A DNA stretch of 64,000 bases from Parcubacteria group bacterium (GCA_016176785.1 JACOWN010000005.1:1202-65201); one strand, 5' to 3'. Shown: positions 4,742 through 36,615, numbered from the stretch's first letter. Notes: generated from the letters alone by a model not told the origin. A program made the numbers and translations.

Positions 4742-5101
4742 ATGCTAAGCGTTTTTCCCGACCTTTTGACCTTTGGGCTCCTCGCGCCGGTCATTATCCG
4801 CATTTTTGTTGGGGCATTGTTTGTTTTGAGCGGCTGGAACGGTTGCCGTCGACTTTTTCAAGAAAAAAACCGAAAGGGCGCTTGGTATATGCACTGCGCG
4901 GTGAGCGCCGTTTCGCTTATTGCGGGGATGCTTGTGTTCGTGGGGCTTTTCACTCAACCGGCGGCGCTCGTTCTTGCGGTTATTTCTCTGGCGCGCGTCC
5001 GCGACAAAGACGACCGCCTTCTGTATCTCCTCTTATTCGCCATGGCGCTTTCGCTCCTCTTTTCAGGCGCCGGCTTTTTCGCGTTTGATTTGCCTCTTTA
5101 A
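4742..5101 (+). CDS. DoxX-family small membrane protein
   Basis: ~120 aa with 3-4 predicted TM helices (LLAPVIIRIFVGALFVLSGW, AVSLIAGMLVFVGLF...) typical of DoxX. The internal ATG at 4742 was chosen over the track start 4643 to leave a divergent promoter region. Confidence 0.5.
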   Translation: MLSVFPDLLTFGLLAPVIIRIFVGALFVLSGWNGCRRLFQEKNRKGAWYMHCAVSAVSLIAGMLVFVGLFTQPAALVLAVISLARVRDKDDRLLYLLLFAMALSLLFSGAGFFAFDLPL

Positions 5102-5185
5102 TTTAATCGGAAGATGTTGGTTGAGGCGAGCATGCCAGCCCAAAAAGTTGAAAAACCATGATTTTGTGGTAGTATTTTCGCATAG

Positions 5186-5258
5186 CCGCCCATAGCTCAG
5201 TTGGTAGAGCAGCTCCCTTTTAAGGAGAGGGTCGCAGGTTCGAATCCTGCTGGGCGGA
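5186..5258 (+). tRNA. tRNA-Lys (anticodon TTT)
   Basis: Manual cloverleaf: acceptor CCGCCCA/TGGGCGG, D-stem GCTC/GAGC, anticodon stem GCTCC/GGAGA with one mismatch, loop CTTTTAA (U33, TTT, A37), T-arm GCAGG-TTCGAAT-CCTGC, discriminator A. No encoded CCA. Confidence 0.82.
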
Positions 5259-5328
5259 CAAAAGGAGGTTGGTACGATCACGCAGTCAGGAGAGAAATAC
5301 CGCCTTACAAAACAAGAGGTCTCCTCGG

Positions 5329-5354
5329 TTATCCACTTATCCACAGTATCCACA
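5329..5354 (+). promoter_or_regulatory. Cluster of three tandem DnaA-box-like 9-mers (TTATCCACT, TTATCCACA, gTATCCACA)
   Basis: Read directly: ggTTATCCACTTATCCACAGTATCCACAac. Two are perfect or near-perfect matches to the TTATCCACA consensus. They lie in a 430-bp non-coding, partly AT-rich spacer. Confidence 0.5.
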
Positions 5355-5683
5355 ACTTGCACAACGGGTGGGGCACGACGTATACTACAAGCAGACCTTG
5401 AAAATTGTTTTCAGGGCAACGCTACGCCTTCGATAGGCGGAACAAATCGGCCTTTTGAAAAACATTTTCGGTTCTGTTCTTTTTGTGTTAGTACAAAACA
5501 ATATGACATAGCACTGCTCGTTCGTTTAGTTTAGGGATTTTTCTCCTCCCTAACACCGAAGCCCGCCATTTTTTTCTCCTCGGCGGGCTTCATTTTGTCC
5601 AAAAAACAAGAAGTCCCGCCCGCAAAGCGGGACGCCTCTGTTTTTTGAGGGTCTCGCACCTGGTTTGAGCAAAAAAATAAGAC

Positions 5684-6415
5684 CTATATCCTCAAAACAA
5701 ACTTTTCAAGCGCCACGGGGAGCGTGTCGCCGCCTTGCCGCACCTCGTGATAGGCGCGAACGAGGTCGGAAGAGAGTTTTTTCAGCTCATCTTCCGTATA
5801 TTTTTTCATACAACTCAACGCTTTTCGGAGAACAAAGGGCGGGAGGCGGAGCGCGGAAACGGCACGCGCGCCCCGCGTCTGCGCTTGTTTCACCGAGCAG
5901 AGCGTTTTAACCTGCCAAAACAAAGCTCCGTGAACCGCTTCCGGCTCTTTACCGTCCCTCCAGAGCGTTTGGAGCGTTACCCACGCCGCCCGCCGATCCC
6001 TTCGCCCCACCGCATCGGTCAGAGAAAAAACGGCGCGGTCCCGCGGCGCCGCGGCAGGTTCTTCTCGCGGCTCCCATACTTTCTCGGCATTGCGCGCCAA
6101 AACGGCAAGCATCTTTCGCGGCAAAGCGTTCTCGCACACGACGAAAACCGCCGGCGAAGCGGCAAGCAGTGCGGCGTTCTCCGCAATGAACGAAGCGGCG
6201 TCGTCGTTTTGAAAAACGTCATGAAGCACGACGGTGCTTGACGGCTCAAAGAGGCTCGAGGATCGCGCCCGTTCTTCAAGCGCCGCCACCGAAACGGAGT
6301 CGCCGTCAAAAGAAAAGAACGGCGCGTCCGGCTTTTTTTTGCGGAGGGCGTCAACAAAAGCGCGCTGTTGCGCTTTTATTTTTGGGGAGTCAAAGCCCGT
6401 GAAGAGATAAAGCAT
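5684..6415 (-). CDS. holA: DNA polymerase III delta subunit
   Basis: N-terminal MLYLFTG clamp-loader delta signature. Length and helical C-terminus are consistent with HolA. The terminator hairpin GTCCCGC-ccgcaaa-GCGGGAC plus a T-run lies just downstream on the minus strand (5615-5650). Confidence 0.68.
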   Translation of the reverse strand: MLYLFTGFDSPKIKAQQRAFVDALRKKKPDAPFFSFDGDSVSVAALEERARSSSLFEPSSTVVLHDVFQNDDAASFIAENAALLAASPAVFVVCENALPRKMLAVLARNAEKVWEPREEPAAAPRDRAVFSLTDAVGRRDRRAAWVTLQTLWRDGKEPEAVHGALFWQVKTLCSVKQAQTRGARAVSALRLPPFVLRKALSCMKKYTEDELKKLSSDLVRAYHEVRQGGDTLPVALEKFVLRI

Positions 6416-27819: not shown

Positions 27820-28818
27820 TTAGAGCGACGGCGATTGTCCGAATGTTATGAAAAGCGATGCGGCGGCGCGCTGGAAAATGCGCGCGGCATTCGTGATGCT
27901 GACCCCGACGCGTGCGGAGCCGCTTGTCCCGCCTTCGCTCCGGAACACGACCTCGGTGTCTTTTTGGGGCGGCAGAAAGGGTTCGTCATTCAATTCCCAC
28001 GAGTATTGGAGACCGTTCGCGCGGTCATCGCGCGAAAAATAATACGGCTCCACGCGCACCGTGAGCTCGTTTTCAGCAAGCGGTTCCGTGCCGCCAAGCG
28101 AGCGTTCGTAGAGCACTCCCAACAGAGGGTGACGGCGGTAGAGAAGCACGCGCGGCTCAACCGCGGCAAGCCGTATCGTCCGTTGTGCCGTAAAGGTCCC
28201 CTGGAGCGATGATGCTTTCACGGTGATCTCCGCGTCAAAGAATCGTTCGGGGCCGTCAAGCGCGAGCGTTTGCTTGCCGAAGCCGGAATCACCCCCAAGC
28301 ACGCGGCGGTTTTTTGACCAGGTGTAAATGACATCGTTGTCGCGTACGCGCGTTCCGTCGGCAAGAACGAAGTGCGGAAAAGCGGTAATGACGAGAGCGC
28401 TCCCCGACGACGGCAGCGCTTTTCCGCGGTAGAACGGCGGCGTGTACGTGTCCGCTTCCCACAGAAGGTCAACGTCGGCGGGACGGAGCGTAATCTCGCC
28501 CACGACCCTCCTCCCCTCGGGCGAGGTCGCGGTTGCGCTTATGCGGAGAGAACTTCCGAACGCGCCCGTGGTAACCGTGAGCGTTTTTATTCCGCGTCCT
28601 TCAGCCGCGCGCCGTCCGCCGACCGTCCAGGAGACGGTGGAACGGTTCAGGTCAACCGAGGACGTATCAAGCGTAAGCTTCACTTCGGTGCGCGCGCCGG
28701 GGAACTCGGGCGTCGCCGTAACGGTGAGAACGCCGATGTTCGGAACTTGCGCGTGAACCGTGGCGTAAAACGCGAGCGCGAATGCGGCGATGCATGTTTT
28801 GGCGAAGAACGACATCAT
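27820..28818 (-). CDS. Secreted hypothetical protein (T4SS-like locus)
   Basis: Signal peptide MMSFFAKTCIAAFALAFYATVHAQ. Beta-rich. 4-nt overlap with the VirB4 gene end. Confidence 0.4.
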   Translation of the reverse strand: MMSFFAKTCIAAFALAFYATVHAQVPNIGVLTVTATPEFPGARTEVKLTLDTSSVDLNRSTVSWTVGGRRAAEGRGIKTLTVTTGAFGSSLRISATATSPEGRRVVGEITLRPADVDLLWEADTYTPPFYRGKALPSSGSALVITAFPHFVLADGTRVRDNDVIYTWSKNRRVLGGDSGFGKQTLALDGPERFFDAEITVKASSLQGTFTAQRTIRLAAVEPRVLLYRRHPLLGVLYERSLGGTEPLAENELTVRVEPYYFSRDDRANGLQYSWELNDEPFLPPQKDTEVVFRSEGGTSGSARVGVSITNAARIFQRAAASLFITFGQSPSL

Positions 28819-30677
28819 AGGGGAACGCCCGCTTTCACCTTAAACGCCTGCCGCGCTTTTTTAATGGCGAGCAGTTCGGACGGGTCCGAAGTAATGATCT
28901 GGTCTTCAGTGTACGACGCAATGACCTTGAGAGCGACGTGTTTCAGTCCGGCAAAAAAGATCCCCTCGCCCACATCCGATTCAAGAAGGAGATATTTTTC
29001 CTCATCCGTCAGGTTAAAGGTCCGTTGCACCTCGTCGATCACCGACGGCGCTTGCTTCAAAAGAAGCTGGATCGCCGAGTTAGAGATGATTGCGCCGCCG
29101 TACGGCGATTTCAAAAAGTCATTGACATCCTGCGTGATGGTCGCGAGGCCCAGAAAGTACTTCCTGCCGCGCTTCGCCAAACTGAAAAGAAATGAAGCGG
29201 TATCTTCTTGTTTCATCATCCACCACGCCTCATCGATGACCATAAGGCGTTTTTTAAGCTCCTTCCGAACCGCATTCCAGATGAAATGCGTCACGATGTA
29301 CATGGCGACCGGCTTCAGCTCATCCTCCATGTCGCGCACCGAAAAGACGACGAATCGCTTGTTTATATCAACGTTCGTCGGACGGTTGATGAAACCCGAC
29401 CACGTTCCTTTCGTGAATTTCGCAAGACGCTGCGACAGCGACGCGCCGCCTTCCATACCCGCAAGCACGAGTTCAAAATCGGACATGAGCGGCGGCTCGT
29501 TTTTTGAAAAATCGGAGTCGGGAGTGATGTCTTTCAAAGCGTATGTCTCTGTGATGGCGTGGTCAACGAGCGAATCCTCCTCCGGCGTCAGCCCTCCGAG
29601 CATGATGCGGAACAAGCCGACGAGATTGACGATGTTTGACCGAAGCACGTCGGCGGGCGATTCGTCCTCGCGCACCGGCGGCAGGTCAAACGGGTTGATG
29701 TGGTGCTCGGACGTGAGTGAAATGTTGAAATAGCGCCCGCCGGTCGCCTCCGCGAGATACTCGTACTCTTTTTCGGGGTCAATCACGATGACGTCTATGT
29801 CAAACATAAGCGACCGCAGGATCTCAAGTTTCGCGGCGTACGATTTTCCGGCGCCGGACGTTGCGAACATGATGGAGTTGTAGTTCTCCATCGCAAAACG
29901 GTCAAAAAGGATCAAGCTGGAATTATGTCGGTTGATGCCGTAGAGGATGCCGCGGTCCGAGGTAAGGTCAAACGACACGAACGGAAAGAAGCTTGAAAGC
30001 GGCTCGGAATTGAGTTTTGAATGGATGTTCAAGCGGTCGTCGGCGATCGGAAGCACGGAGTGATATCCCGCCTCCTGCTGGAAGAGCGCGGGGCGGACAT
30101 AGACGAGTTTTGATTCAAGCAGCGAGCGTATTTCTTGCTCAATTTTATCAAGCTCGCGTTCGTTGTCCGCGTAAAGCGTCATATAAAAACCGACGTCAAA
30201 AAGTTTTTCCTGCGCTTGCTGGAGTTTGTCGCGGAGATCTTCAAGGTCGCGGTACGCCGTGTCAAGCTTCGGGTCGCGCACGAGCCCCCGCTCTTCGCGG
30301 ATGGCGATCTGGCTCTCAACCTCGGCGACTTTTTTCTGGAACTGCCTTAAAACCTTCGCCGTATCAATGGGGTGCACGAAGAGAGAAACGTCAAACACCT
30401 TATCAAGGTTGATGATCGGCGACAGCCAGTTGTCGGAAAGATAACGCGGATAGGAGATGGCGAAGAATGTGCGCGCGACTTTTTCGCCGACGTAAAATTG
30501 TTTCTGTTCTATTTTGAGCGCCGCCGGCGCGATGATATCGCGCAATTCCAAAACGCCCGCTTCGTAGATCTCTTGCGGCAGAATAGGCGATATTTCTTGT
30601 TTTTCTTTCGGCCCTTTGCCGAGCAATTTATCAAGTATGTTCATACGAAACGATTGATAGTGAACGGTCGGCGGCAT
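28815..30677 (-). CDS. VirB4/TrbE/CagE-family type IV secretion ATPase (C-terminal ATPase portion)
   Basis: Walker A MFATSGAGKSYAAK, Walker B RLMVIDEAWWMM, conserved motifs TQDVNDF and GxGIFF of VirB4 family. 620 aa. Confidence 0.85.
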   Translation of the reverse strand: MPPTVHYQSFRMNILDKLLGKGPKEKQEISPILPQEIYEAGVLELRDIIAPAALKIEQKQFYVGEKVARTFFAISYPRYLSDNWLSPIINLDKVFDVSLFVHPIDTAKVLRQFQKKVAEVESQIAIREERGLVRDPKLDTAYRDLEDLRDKLQQAQEKLFDVGFYMTLYADNERELDKIEQEIRSLLESKLVYVRPALFQQEAGYHSVLPIADDRLNIHSKLNSEPLSSFFPFVSFDLTSDRGILYGINRHNSSLILFDRFAMENYNSIMFATSGAGKSYAAKLEILRSLMFDIDVIVIDPEKEYEYLAEATGGRYFNISLTSEHHINPFDLPPVREDESPADVLRSNIVNLVGLFRIMLGGLTPEEDSLVDHAITETYALKDITPDSDFSKNEPPLMSDFELVLAGMEGGASLSQRLAKFTKGTWSGFINRPTNVDINKRFVVFSVRDMEDELKPVAMYIVTHFIWNAVRKELKKRLMVIDEAWWMMKQEDTASFLFSLAKRGRKYFLGLATITQDVNDFLKSPYGGAIISNSAIQLLLKQAPSVIDEVQRTFNLTDEEKYLLLESDVGEGIFFAGLKHVALKVIASYTEDQIITSDPSELLAIKKARQAFKVKAGVPL

Positions 30678-30695
30678 ACGCCCCGCGCGTTCGGC

Positions 30696-31352
30696 TTATA
30701 AAGCGTTCCTTCTCGTTTCCGGCGGGATCGGTTTTTCCAATTCGCCCGGATTGAATATCTTGAAGAAAAGTTCCACCAATTCTTCCGTTCCGAGACGCGC
30801 AACGCGGATGCCGGCGGACGCAAGCCCTTGTTCCACCACGGAGGCGCGCTGTTCAAGCTGCGTCCTGTTTTCTTCAAACGATTCAATGCGTTCGGCAACG
30901 TTGGCGTCCCGCCCCCCTTTTTTTCCCAAAAGACCCGCAAACACACCGGCGCGTTCGACGCCTAAGATAGGCGGCGAATACGGCACCACGACAAAAAAGG
31001 CTTTTGTCATGATATTGGTGCTTTCGGTGAATTTTTTGACGAAATCAACGTATTCGGAAACCTGAATGCGCATCAAGTCGGACGTCTGCGCTTTTTCGCG
31101 TTCCTCAAGAAGTGACAAGTACGGCCTGATATCAAGCTTGCGTGATTGAATGAAAAACTGCACAGAAAAATCAAGCGAGTTCAGGAAGTTTTGAAATTGG
31201 AGCAAGATCGCTTCTTGTTCGGCGGCCGACTTGAGCGCAAGGTTGTGCGACGAAGTCATAAGAGCCAGCCGCAGCGAGCCGTCTTTCAAGACAACAACGC
31301 CGTTGCGTATTTCTCGGATGGGAACGAAGTCCTGCGTTGATTTTGAAACCAT
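30696..31352 (-). CDS. VirB4 N-terminal domain encoded as a separate ORF (same frame as downstream ATPase ORF)
   Basis: FVPIREIRNGVVVLKDGSLRLALMTSSHNLALKSAAEQEAILLQFQNFLNSLDFSVQFF matches the conserved start of VirB4/TrbE proteins. 218 + 620 aa equals full VirB4 size. Confidence 0.6.
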   Translation of the reverse strand: MVSKSTQDFVPIREIRNGVVVLKDGSLRLALMTSSHNLALKSAAEQEAILLQFQNFLNSLDFSVQFFIQSRKLDIRPYLSLLEEREKAQTSDLMRIQVSEYVDFVKKFTESTNIMTKAFFVVVPYSPPILGVERAGVFAGLLGKKGGRDANVAERIESFEENRTQLEQRASVVEQGLASAGIRVARLGTEELVELFFKIFNPGELEKPIPPETRRNAL

Positions 31353-31422: not shown

Positions 31423-31857
31423 TTACTTCTTGCTTTCCGGTCCTTGCTTTTGTCCTGCATAGATGCTTTCGTGGACGTCCAAACTCCACGCAATGTCTTT
31501 CAGCTTGCTTTCCGAAAGGCGCGGGACGAAAAAATCGCTTGCGGGCGCCGCCTCCTTTCCCCGCTCTTCCGGCAAGCGCTCCCGTTTCTGCCATAGATAC
31601 AGTTTATCACGAGTGAGGAAACGCACCGCCGCCTCAAGGATATGGATAAAGTTCCGGTCGTTCACTTTGTAAAAAGCAAGCGCAAGAGAGAGCGCGACGA
31701 CGGGAGCGATCAGGAAGATCGCGAGGTAGAGCGGCAGCGCCCGGTAGAAGATGAAGGAAAACCCCGCGCCGCCGGCAAGATAAATAAACTGCTTCAGGGT
31801 CAGCGGCCCGAAGATCTTGTCCTCAACTTCTATGAATTGCGGTGTCTGAAATCTCAT
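31423..31857 (-). CDS. PrgI/VirB3-like small membrane protein
   Basis: 144 aa. N-terminus MRFQTPQFIEVEDKIFGPLTLKQFIYL followed by two TM helices, as in PrgI-family proteins that precede VirB4 in Gram-positive-type T4SS. Confidence 0.5.
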   Translation of the reverse strand: MRFQTPQFIEVEDKIFGPLTLKQFIYLAGGAGFSFIFYRALPLYLAIFLIAPVVALSLALAFYKVNDRNFIHILEAAVRFLTRDKLYLWQKRERLPEERGKEAAPASDFFVPRLSESKLKDIAWSLDVHESIYAGQKQGPESKK

Positions 31858-31895
31858 GCGAAATCTCCAAAAAATTTTGGAGATTTCGTATGAGA
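31852..31895. repeat. Palindromic hairpin CGAAATCTCCAAAA-aa-TTTTGGAGATTTCG (extended TCTCATG...TATGAGA) overlapping the PrgI-like start codon
   Basis: Read directly. 14-bp perfect stem at 31859-31888. Confidence 0.6.
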
Positions 31896-33091: not shown

Positions 33092-35062
33092 TTAGGTATT
33101 ACTTTGTTTTGTAAAACGACTAATATTTCTTGCGATATCGTCAAGTTTTTGTTGTGCCTTGCTTTGTTTTGTTTGCAGTTCATTAACCCGGCTTTCCTCC
33201 GCCGTGGTAAGTTCGCCACGACGCCTTCTTTGCCCTTGGAGGCGGCTCATCTCGTTTTTAATATCTTGCATATCTTTTTTAGCGCCTTCTTCCTGTTTTT
33301 TCCAGTGCGCAAGCTGCAAAGTTCCGGACGCTCGTTTGTCTTTGCGCGCGATTTTGGTGAATAGGGTGTCAATGGACGGCGTCTCAATAGTTCGCGCGTA
33401 TCCGAGCTGGCGTGATGTTTGGAGGCGTGCGATTTCTTGTTCTTTGGCACGGATTTGCCCCTCGATAATTTTTGCTCTCTGTGTCGCTTGCAGTCGAGCG
33501 TCATCCGTACCTATCGCGCTTCGCGCGATCGCTTTTTGTGTTTCCAAACTTTCTCGATCTTCCGCAATCTGTTCTTGTACCCTTCGTATTTCTTCTTGAG
33601 GCACTCCCAAACTCTTTCCAAATTGTTCTCGCGCGGCAGTCTGCCTTTCAAGTTGCGCTTCGTAGCCGCCCTTGCCGCGCACTTTGCCGAGGCCTATACC
33701 GAGCTTGGCTGCGCCCTTGGTAACCGGCGCAACGCCTCGGATATCGTAACTTCCTCCCGCAACGCCGCGCGTTGCCTTGAGGGCGAGCGCGCCGGTCCTG
33801 CTTTTCGCCGCCCAGTCGCGGAAGCCCTCGGTTGAAGCGATCTTTGAAGCGGCGCGGCCGAGCGTTTGCCGCAACGCGAAGCCCGCTCCTCCGGCGGCTA
33901 TCGTCCCTCCGGCAAAGCCCGCCACCGCATTGCCGTACTCTATCGCCGTCTTTCCGAAATCACCGCTTAAGTTCTTCACCGCCTTCAGCCCGTAGAGAAG
34001 GATGAAAATGATGACTATGAAATTGAAAATCCCCGTGACGTCAAGAATGTCTTTTTGCGCGATGCGCGTAAGCAGCTGGCCGTTTTGGATGATCAGGATC
34101 GCGATATAGAGCACGAAAAGATAAAGCGGCGCGACGAAAATTTGATTCGTAAGCGTTGAAAGCCAGGCGTCAAAATGTTTTTTCGTTGACGGCAGGATGG
34201 CGAGAAGGAACGCAAGCGGCGCGAGAACGGCAAGAAAAATGAATGCAACGAAACGGCCAATCAAAAGCAGAGCGCCGGTGAAAAACGTCCACGCCGTCAC
34301 GAAGTAAAGCGTCGCCAAACTGACGAGAATGACGGACATTTTGCCCGGCGTGAGCCCGGAAACCGTTTTTGTCGGGTCGTAATTTTGAAGAAGACCGAGG
34401 CCGTTTAATATCTCGCTTGATATCGTGCCGCCCGCGCTTGAGAACGCATCGTAAAACTGAAGCGCAATGATGTTTGACGCGTCAATCCCGACCTTGACGA
34501 AGAACAAGCTGAAGTTGATGAGGAGCGCGACGATAATGAGCCGCGCGAGGAGCGTTTTCATGCCGTACTTTTCTATCTGGAGAATGGTCGCGATGGCGAT
34601 GACAAGCAGGATGAAGATGAAAAAAAGATTCGCAAAATCGCGCGTTACGGTCCAGCCGACGGTGATCGCGTCCACCCGCTCAAGGGCGTTGCTTCTGATG
34701 GTGAACTCAATGACGTGGTCAAGCAAAAGGCCCGTGCCTGTCATGAGGGCGTTCGCGATGTTTACGACGGTGACGAGGACCCAGTTGAGGCCTCCCACGA
34801 CAAAGTCGCCGACGGTTTGCGGGAAAAAGTAGGCAAATCCGGCGGTCGCAAAAATTGAAGCGGCTCCGAATACGAACGCCGGCAGCATAAAGGCAACGGC
34901 GTATGCGGAATGGGCCGGGAGCAAAAAGCCGGCGAGAATGACAAGCGCCACGGACAAAGCGGTTCGCCGGGAACATTTCGGATACTGACGCGCGCAGAGC
35001 CGCCCGAGCCGCGCGAAGCGGTTCCGTACATATACGTAAAGTTTTTGGGATACCATTCGCAT
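33092..35062 (-). CDS. VirB6/TrbL-like polytopic membrane protein with C-terminal coiled-coil
   Basis: About 8-10 predicted TM helices over 400 aa, Gly-rich linker, long charged coiled-coil tail. This architecture and its position next to VirB4 are typical of VirB6-like proteins. Start at MRMVSQ (35062), which avoids overlap with the upstream gene. Confidence 0.55.
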   Translation of the reverse strand: MRMVSQKLYVYVRNRFARLGRLCARQYPKCSRRTALSVALVILAGFLLPAHSAYAVAFMLPAFVFGAASIFATAGFAYFFPQTVGDFVVGGLNWVLVTVVNIANALMTGTGLLLDHVIEFTIRSNALERVDAITVGWTVTRDFANLFFIFILLVIAIATILQIEKYGMKTLLARLIIVALLINFSLFFVKVGIDASNIIALQFYDAFSSAGGTISSEILNGLGLLQNYDPTKTVSGLTPGKMSVILVSLATLYFVTAWTFFTGALLLIGRFVAFIFLAVLAPLAFLLAILPSTKKHFDAWLSTLTNQIFVAPLYLFVLYIAILIIQNGQLLTRIAQKDILDVTGIFNFIVIIFILLYGLKAVKNLSGDFGKTAIEYGNAVAGFAGGTIAAGGAGFALRQTLGRAASKIASTEGFRDWAAKSRTGALALKATRGVAGGSYDIRGVAPVTKGAAKLGIGLGKVRGKGGYEAQLERQTAAREQFGKSLGVPQEEIRRVQEQIAEDRESLETQKAIARSAIGTDDARLQATQRAKIIEGQIRAKEQEIARLQTSRQLGYARTIETPSIDTLFTKIARKDKRASGTLQLAHWKKQEEGAKKDMQDIKNEMSRLQGQRRRRGELTTAEESRVNELQTKQSKAQQKLDDIARNISRFTKQSNT

Positions 35063-35064
35063 GG

Positions 35065-36615
35065 TTAATCGTTCGGCGTACCCCCGCCGAGGGTTAAGGG
35101 AAAGACGCGGCATTCCTCTATTTTTTGCTGCGTTGCGCCGCGAAGTTCCGTCATCGCGTCATCGGTGTCGGACGCGCTGACGCGGGCGCTTATGACATCC
35201 GCCTCACTGTGAAGCGTTTCGGTTTCAAGGAGTCCGCGATAATCCTCCGCAATGGCGCTCATGGTGGAGACGGTCTGCGCGCTCTCGGCGCGGATGCGGA
35301 ATGCCGCAAGCGCCGCCGACAGTTCGTTTGAGGAAACGATGGCGCTCTGGAGCGTATCCTTCCGCGGCGCGATGTCCGTTGCGAGGGTCGTTGACGCGGC
35401 CGCAATGCGGCTCCGTGCCGTTTGCGCGTCGTCAAGCGTGAGAGGAACGGTCTGCGTACGCGTCAGTTTGTCCGTATAACACGCAATGAGTTCGTTCACT
35501 TTCGTTTCGGCGCCGAGGACGCTCCGCAGGGCGGCTTCCTTGGCGGCGCGGTAATCACCTTCGGCGGCGCTGCGGCGCGCGAGTTCGTCAAGAAGTTCCC
35601 GCCTGACACCCGGCAGCGTTTCTGCGTTTATGTCCGTCCCCAAGCGGTCGGTATATGACGGCTGTCCGCCGCTCCGGTCGGAAAGGCCGAGCAATCCGAC
35701 TCCTCCGAATATCTGCTGCGTCAGCTGCACGATGAGCGCCTGCACGATCTCGTTGAATGAATCCGCAAGCTCTAACTGGCGCACCGTGCTCCCAAACTGG
35801 TTTGCAAGCACGTCCTCAATAAGAACCCCGGGCGACTTGATGGAGCAGTTCTCAACCTCCGCCGTTTGTCCGGTTGCTTCCTCCATGACCGTATCCTTCG
35901 TGCAGTGCCTAAATGCTATGAAGCCGCTTGCCCAATTCGCTTCTTGTTCCGCACGCTTCTCCGCATTCCGTAACTGACGCTCCCGCTCGTCCACCGCAAG
36001 CAGGTATTGGCCGTAGATATTGTTTTCCGGCTGGAGCGTCACATTGATCCATGCCTCCCACCCCACTCGGTGCACGTACAGCTCAAGGTCTCGGAAGTTC
36101 CGGACAACGCCCGAAAGCGTGCATTGGAATCGGTATCGTTGCGGAACGGGTTTCCGGAGGAGAAAGCGGAACGGTTCAAGCGAGTAGGAGCACAGGTTCG
36201 TGAGGCCTAACTTTTCAATAAAAGCGCCCGATACCTGGTCAAGCACGTCCGCAAAAAATTGTTCAGGGTCGGTTATGAAGCCCGGGTTCCCCTCAAAGCC
36301 GTTGTTGATCCAATTGACGATGTCAGCCGTCATTTGCTGAATAACCATTTTTGCGATCGCCCACGCAAGCGGATTGAGGACGTTTTTCATGAACTGGTCC
36401 GCCGAATCAAGCGCCGCGCTCGTCGTATTGGCGGCGGCGCTTATCCTTTCCGGAATCGTTCCGGGTCCGTCGATGACGATGACGGCATTGCCGCCTGCCC
36501 CGCCGAGACCGAACAAGGCCGCAAATGTTTTCTGCGGCGCGATCGCAAACACCGCGGGCATAACCAAAGCGCCCATCAGTATCCCCGTTATGAGTTTTTT
36601 ATGAAGAGGCGTCAT
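35065..36615 (-). CDS. Secreted hypothetical protein (signal peptide + TM anchor, 516 aa)
   Basis: MTPLHKKLITGILMGALVMPAVFAIAPQKTFA signal peptide. No catalytic motif recognised. Confidence 0.4.
   Translation of the reverse strand: MTPLHKKLITGILMGALVMPAVFAIAPQKTFAALFGLGGAGGNAVIVIDGPGTIPERISAAANTTSAALDSADQFMKNVLNPLAWAIAKMVIQQMTADIVNWINNGFEGNPGFITDPEQFFADVLDQVSGAFIEKLGLTNLCSYSLEPFRFLLRKPVPQRYRFQCTLSGVVRNFRDLELYVHRVGWEAWINVTLQPENNIYGQYLLAVDERERQLRNAEKRAEQEANWASGFIAFRHCTKDTVMEEATGQTAEVENCSIKSPGVLIEDVLANQFGSTVRQLELADSFNEIVQALIVQLTQQIFGGVGLLGLSDRSGGQPSYTDRLGTDINAETLPGVRRELLDELARRSAAEGDYRAAKEAALRSVLGAETKVNELIACYTDKLTRTQTVPLTLDDAQTARSRIAAASTTLATDIAPRKDTLQSAIVSSNELSAALAAFRIRAESAQTVSTMSAIAEDYRGLLETETLHSEADVISARVSASDTDDAMTELRGATQQKIEECRVFPLTLGGGTPND

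Follow-up and report, generated by a model that had tools for sequence, protein, structure and literature searches.

In a 64,000-nucleotide stretch of DNA from a Parcubacteria group bacterium (GCA_016176785.1 JACOWN010000005.1:1202-65201; hereafter the window), the VirB4 ATPase of a type IV secretion system (T4SS) is encoded on the minus strand by two adjacent open reading frames (ORFs), here called ORF1 and ORF2. We consider it highly probable that this locus has the normal and conserved T4SS layout of Patescibacteria (Candidate Phyla Radiation, CPR), whose members are ultra-small bacteria and in which the VirB4 function is provided by two adjacent cistrons that are co-transcribed. The initial annotation, which was made from the sequence of the window, had instead described a VirB4 interrupted by one in-frame TAA; this headline is not borne out, as two ORFs are found in each of 80 orthologous loci. 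The junction consists of the following elements, with lengths in amino acids (aa) or nucleotides (nt):

31352..30696, minus strand: ORF1, 218 aa, with the C-terminus ...ETRRNAL
30698..30696, minus strand: TAA stop codon of ORF1, interpreted as a genuine terminator
30645..30695, minus strand: intergenic spacer; the first ATG (30677) follows after 18 nt and the conserved ATG (30644) after 51 nt
30677..28815, minus strand: ORF2, 620 aa, beginning MPPTVHY...; 609 aa if started at Met12 (ATG 30644..30642)

Translation of the minus strand shows that the coordinates first reported with an uncertainty of ±1 nt (two ORFs in the same frame, a single TAA, 18 nt, 838 aa) are exact. The region 31352..28815 lies in a single frame with one internal stop in 846 codons (218 + 620 = 838 aa), and the 18 nt after the TAA, read directly from the minus strand, are GCC GAA CGC GCG GGG CGT, equivalent to AERAGR.

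The strongest evidence for two separate genes comes from the conservation of the split. Among 7,663 matches to ORF1, the best 120 were inspected (61-74% identity), and all of these are stand-alone proteins of 207-228 aa from Parcubacteria/Paceibacterota, with C-termini that coincide with that of ORF1 in the alignment. We also tabulated the junction in 80 orthologous loci, each from a different species of Patescibacteria. Two ORFs are present in 80/80, and the stop codon of ORF1 occupies the same place throughout, as TAA (61 loci), TAG (13) or TGA (6). The two ORFs of the window are full length and conserved (58-68% and 64-82% identity to their orthologues). The distance from the ORF1 stop to the ATG of ORF2 ranges from -4 to 496 nt: three loci have a 4-nt ATGA overlap, 54 a spacer of 0-12 nt, eight of 13-40 nt, seven of 41-250 nt and eight of >250 nt. 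In six long-spacer loci (L016, L030, L032, L038, L058 and L077) an unrelated same-strand gene of the 23S_rRNA_IVP family stands between the two ORFs, which are therefore independent cistrons. Moreover, a chimeric query in which the C-terminal 108 residues of ORF1 were followed by ORF2 from Met12 onwards retrieved no protein spanning both halves among its 120 best matches (maximum coverage 55%). In the closest other species (GCA_016204045.1; L091), ORF1 ends with TAA, the spacer is 10 nt, the relative frame is +1 and ORF2 starts with MGLLDKILK.... The initial annotation had itself listed a genuinely two-piece VirB4 among its options and had named orthologues that consistently encode two proteins as evidence against an interruption; the option is confirmed, and such orthologues are what all 80 loci provide.

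The reading frame shared by ORF1 and ORF2 is a coincidence in this genome, where the spacer happens to be a multiple of three. A shared frame is expected by chance in 1/3 of cases, and two of the 21 closely spaced same-strand gene pairs in the window share a frame with one stop between them, the second of these being a pair of unrelated genes. Across the 80 loci the relative frame is 0 in 25, +1 in 34 and +2 in 21 (binomial p = 0.72 against 1/3; chi-square p = 0.19). Taken together, these figures indicate that the shared frame is not beyond chance.

ORF2 comprises the second half of the VirB4 N-terminal domain followed by the P-loop ATPase domain. Its translation contains a Walker A (TSGAGKS) and a Walker B motif (LMVIDEAW), and the Pfam search identified P-loop_TraG, AAA_10 and DUF87 together with the end of the VirB4/TraC N-terminal domain. 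Against the NCBIfam model NF045971 (VirB4-like, CD1110 family) it scores 377.8 bits with a cut-off of 325, aa35-582 aligning to positions 178-733 of 752, and in the PDB it matches 4ag5 (VirB4 C-terminal domain; E = 1.9e-41) and residues 445-735 of TrwK (E = 6e-8). ORF2 does not carry the complete N-terminal domain on the same polypeptide as the ATPase, as a single-chain VirB4 does.

The missing part is found in ORF1, which corresponds to a stretch of ~180-200 residues at the start of a single-chain VirB4, or roughly the first half of the N-terminal domain. In the NCBIfam search, aa7-119 of ORF1 align to positions 2-116 of the CD1110-family VirB4 profile, aa4-123 to positions 102-233 of the VirB4 profile of mycoplasma integrative and conjugative elements (ICEs; E = 2e-9) and again aa4-123 to positions 13-142 of the 201 positions of the TrsD/TraD profile NF041427 (E = 3.7e-6, 26.9 bits); two TrbE profiles are matched at positions 15-163 and 53-206. 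The Pfam family PF26593 (TraC-like) is precomputed for a protein identical to ORF1 and on L085-L090 (L085 being a Logan contig), while our own Pfam scan, made with a copy that may lack PF26593, gave only a weak TraC_F_IV match. The AlphaFold2 model of ORF1 has a mean pLDDT (predicted local distance difference test) of 70, and its 14 best Foldseek matches in the PDB all belong to TrwK/VirB4 of the R388 T4SS (probability 0.92-1.00, template modelling (TM) score about 0.46-0.51). The link between ORF1 and VirB4 is drawn from the NCBIfam and Pfam profiles and the fold match, because a sequence search of the PDB chains with ORF1 gave nothing meaningful, a profile comparison of the ORF1 alignment with R388 TrwK gave no match, and a comparison with TrsD was weak. 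On the profile evidence, ORF1 is a distant relative of staphylococcal TrsD, homologous to it yet outside the subfamily NF041427. It has the form of a ~200-230 aa homologue of the VirB4 N-terminus that is encoded as a separate cistron directly upstream of an N-terminally shortened VirB4 ATPase.

ORF1 and ORF2 are colinear with a normal single-chain VirB4, because positions 2-116 of the CD1110 profile fall in ORF1 and positions 178-733 in ORF2. These colinear matches bear out the original suggestion that the combined ORFs equal a normal VirB4. The further claim that ORF1 is the ORF of the N-terminal domain stands for the first half of that domain and fails for the second half, which lies on ORF2: the TraC_F_IV model (375 positions, N-terminal domain) is divided between aa160-204 of ORF1 (positions 133-174) and aa136-211 of ORF2 (positions 299-373) in the Pfam search. 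The cut thus falls inside the VirB4 N-terminal domain and not between this domain and the ATPase.

The start of ORF2 is probably Met12 (ATG 30644..30642). Orthologues of ORF2 begin with M[GSA][ILF]FDFLKK, and the ORF2 starts of L091 and of most of the 80 orthologues align with Met12 of the window ORF2 (MNILDKLLGK...), while the 11 residues read from the ATG at 30677 (MPPTVHYQSFR) have no counterpart in the orthologues and are lineage-specific. This 11-residue extension may or may not be translated.

We propose that the first cistron yields a TrsD-like protein of ~215 aa, with the TAA serving as its real terminator, and the second a protein of ~610 aa that carries what is left of the N-terminal domain together with the P-loop ATPase. 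The start of ORF2 lies 0-12 nt past the ORF1 stop in most orthologues, or overlaps it as ATGA, without a Shine-Dalgarno motif. ORF2 may be translated by coupling of termination and reinitiation, which would give roughly equal amounts of both chains. By analogy with the structures of single-chain VirB4, the two polypeptides would assemble non-covalently with the PrgI/VirB3-like protein encoded upstream. According to a FEMS review (PMC12857230), the N-terminal domains of VirB4 link the two protomers within a dimer, are embedded in the membrane and touch both VirB3 and VirB8; on this basis, the TrsD-like chain is predicted to provide the portion of the VirB4 N-terminal domain that lies close to the membrane and contacts VirB3. 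Co-transcription of the two genes is suggested because neither a promoter nor a terminator was matched on the coding strand of the spacer and the RNA fold at the junction is not significant (z = -0.41). No conserved sequence was found in the spacer. A regulatory RNA, a terminator or a promoter located there was also considered and none was found.

Several observations weigh against this interpretation of the locus. The score of ORF1 against NF041427 is 26.9 bits where the curated cut-off is 200 and TrsD of pSK41 reaches 227.6, and the hhalign profile comparison between the ORF1 alignment and pSK41 TrsD is weak, albeit in register (E = 0.011, probability 3.7%). Two candidate starts of ORF2, at 30677 or 30644, both stand, and with either of them the spacer of the window (18 or 51 nt) is longer than in 57/80 orthologues, so that coupling may be less tight here. 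Finally, we infer both the binding of the two proteins to each other and the absence of a fused product.

A fused product is the essence of the alternative that survives best, namely that programmed or suppressor-mediated readthrough of the TAA yields some full-length VirB4 of 845 aa in this lineage. We regard this as very unlikely. In its favour stand the common frame of the two ORFs, broken by one stop, and the "tRNA-Stop" with anticodon tta that ARAGORN reported at 5186..5259 on the plus strand. However, frame, spacer length and spacer sequence are unconserved, the closest other species having its 10-nt spacer and frame +1, and the junction has no structured RNA. Nowhere across the orthologues did we find the conserved frame, combined with a conserved downstream peptide or RNA signal, by which programmed readthrough would be recognised. 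In addition, the TAA is followed by G, which in E. coli is an efficient termination context, and TAA terminates 23/47 large ORFs in the window.

The tRNA call likewise speaks against readthrough when it is read in the Rfam alignment. The ARAGORN cloverleaf can be drawn only with two bases separating the D stem from the anticodon stem, with an internal C·A mismatch and with a variable loop of 4 nt. By contrast, the Rfam tRNA covariance model scores 71.2 bits at 5186..5259 with canonical spacing and a terminal non-Watson-Crick 27-43 pair, and it places the loop as CUUUUAA, with the anticodon UUU, at the top posterior probability at every position. What we take to be the sequence of E. coli tRNA-Lys(UUU) is identical to 5186..5259 at 55/73 positions, gapless and in the Rfam register. 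The "tRNA-Stop" is an artefact of a one-base shift in register, and the gene is tRNA-Lys(UUU). An ochre suppressor tRNA and a reassignment of TAA were both rejected, given this tRNA-Lys(UUU) and the use of TAA at the end of so many large ORFs. The programmed readthrough that the initial annotation had listed is therefore unsupported: neither frame, spacer length, stop codon nor spacer sequence is conserved, and the tRNA that seemed to read UAA is a mis-called tRNA-Lys.

A weaker form of the same idea, which we hold to be just as improbable, is that the chance in-frame arrangement allows low natural readthrough of the TAA and hence a minor, full-length fused VirB4 beside the two chains, in this lineage only. 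If true, such low-level readthrough would be a snapshot of how split and fused forms of VirB4 could interconvert.

The idea that a once single-chain VirB4 was split by a recent nonsense mutation, so that a pseudogene or a decaying system remains, is more remote still and in our view close to negligible. Its only support is the shared frame together with the total length of 838 aa. On the other side, thousands of stand-alone homologues end at the alignment position where ORF1 ends, the 80/80 loci are split, the chimeric query has no fused relatives among its 120 best matches, and both ORFs are full length and conserved at the identities given above. The nonsense mutation offered earlier as an option is thus excluded by the conservation of the split throughout the phylum. 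A false stop made by a sequencing or assembly error, also among the earlier options and with nothing beyond its prior possibility in its favour, is practically ruled out since the TAA sits at the conserved stop position of the family and the junction DNA is identical in six contigs that were assembled independently from six sequencing runs (99.8-100% identity over 2.2-5.4 kb), all of which encode the exact 218-aa protein and its stop.

The two-cistron VirB4 of the window agrees with what has been described for the phylum. Quiñonero-Coronel et al. (Microb Genom 2025; PMC12102498) reported TrsD as remotely homologous to the N-terminal portion of VirB4 and otherwise known from the pGO1 subclass of MPF_FATA. 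In the same study no other T4SS component was recovered from Patescibacteria in such abundance as TrsD, 1,664 of its copies were associated with (adjoining) virB4, and the copy of Southlakia epibionticum was listed as essential (PMC12102498). Phylum, gene content (PrgI/VirB3-like, TrsD-like, VirB4, VirB6-like and pilin-like) and the adjacency of TrsD and virB4 are all alike in that system and in ours, and the two differ in nothing substantive, except that TrsD figures in the paper as a component in its own right, with its function unknown. The window locus is one more instance of the published Patescibacteria T4SS, to which the colinear profile mapping and the statistics of spacer and frame add a refinement only. 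The two-gene split of VirB4 has already been described, and the feature is an ordinary one.

A similar arrangement is found in the TrsD/TrsE system of the staphylococcal plasmids pSK41/pGO1 (MPF_FATA), where a VirB3-like small membrane protein and TrsD precede a VirB4-like ATPase that lacks the extreme N-terminal region. The order in pSK41 is a VirB3-like gene, trsD (227 aa) and a 672-aa DUF87 ATPase (trsE), and ORF2 aligns with TrsE end to end (aa47-585 on 36-617; 24% identity, E = 2e-36). Unlike the window system, which is chromosomal, pSK41 is a conjugative plasmid with a relaxase and a coupling protein (pGO1 is likewise conjugative), and the similarity between ORF1 and TrsD is remote, as the bit score quoted above shows against its cut-off. 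In the literature the Patescibacteria system is reported as essential to an epibiotic way of life and not to conjugation. We found no literature on TrsD together with TrsE in type IV secretion.

Single-chain VirB4 proteins (TrwK of R388, the CD1110 family of Firmicutes ICEs, TrbE and TraC) share the fold and the domain order with the window proteins, but they are one polypeptide of ~750-890 aa, whereas the first ~180-200 residues form a separate protein in the window. The pXO1-type megaplasmids of Bacillus and those of B. thuringiensis (Bt407) also possess PrgI, a small ORF and a DUF87 ATPase, with neighbours overlapping or 2 nt apart. Their small ORF differs in its length of 304-328 aa and is annotated merely as hypothetical; it is 24-32% identical to ORF1 over 87-91% of the latter, and the pXO1 protein had no match among the NCBIfam models. 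These homologues of ORF1 are located as follows:

L081 (NC_018878.1), 4875-5861: small ORF between PrgI and the DUF87 ATPase
L082 (B. anthracis pXO1), 4776-5690: small ORF between PrgI and the DUF87 ATPase

In Patescibacteria, in staphylococcal pSK41-type plasmids and in Bacillus pXO1-type plasmids, the portion of VirB4 nearest to VirB3 would be a separate polypeptide. A separate piece of this kind bears on the assembly of the inner-membrane complex in monoderm T4SSs, which is a modest point and raises no new question. The main consequence concerns annotation. Labels such as pseudogene, frameshift or recoding site would be wrong at this junction, and the 218-aa ORF is better called a TrsD-like N-terminal piece of VirB4 than a hypothetical protein.

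As expected for VirB4, the two ORFs are encoded beside a VirB3/PrgI-like two-helix membrane protein, and the order of PrgI, small ORF and ATPase recurs in the orthologues and in the pXO1-type and Bt407 plasmids. The gene set of the Patescibacteria T4SS (PMC12102498) is present in the window, with firm matches for VirB4, the TrsD-like protein and PrgI and weak ones for the pilin and the TrbL-like protein; the relatives are metagenome-assembled genomes (MAGs) of Parcubacteria/Paceibacterota. The neighbours are:

33092..35113, minus strand: 673-aa candidate VirB6/TrbL-like component, with a weak precomputed TrbL match on the same gene in the Logan contig L085
31917..32297, minus strand: 126-aa gene of the 23S_rRNA_IVP / bAvd-like four-helix-bundle type, between a 249-aa gene and PrgI
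31423..31857, minus strand: PrgI-family (VirB3-like) membrane protein directly upstream of ORF1 (Pfam PrgI, E = 5e-11, 43.4 bits, cut-off 27)
27820..28818, minus strand: 332-aa protein downstream of virB4 without a Pfam match; a 333-aa gene has the same position in L091
26925..27806, minus strand: 293-aa protein; its T4SS_pilin (VirB2-like) match is weak (E = 1.6e-5, 25.3 bits, slightly under the cut-off of 26.6)

The T4SS_pilin family was also flagged in L091. An ATGA (28815..28818, minus strand) contains both the stop of ORF2 and the start codon of the 332-aa gene, suggesting translational coupling. No Shine-Dalgarno motif could be recognised within 30 nt upstream of the ~15 gene starts inspected in the T4SS cluster (26.9-40.5 kb), which suggests that initiation in this organism is coupled or independent of such a motif.

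Small genes of the 23S_rRNA_IVP family seem to have entered the T4SS operon at intergenic sites on repeated occasions, judging from their positions in the loci compared. The copy on the PrgI side has no counterpart at that position in the closest other species (L091), and a seemingly degraded copy occupies the gap between the TrsD-like gene and virB4 in L012. A perfect 13-bp inverted repeat (GAAATCTCCAAAA TT TTTTGGAGATTTC; 31860..31887, minus strand) is situated between the 23S_rRNA_IVP-family gene and the start codon of PrgI in the window, and it may form a hairpin or terminator, or mark the edge of the inserted gene.

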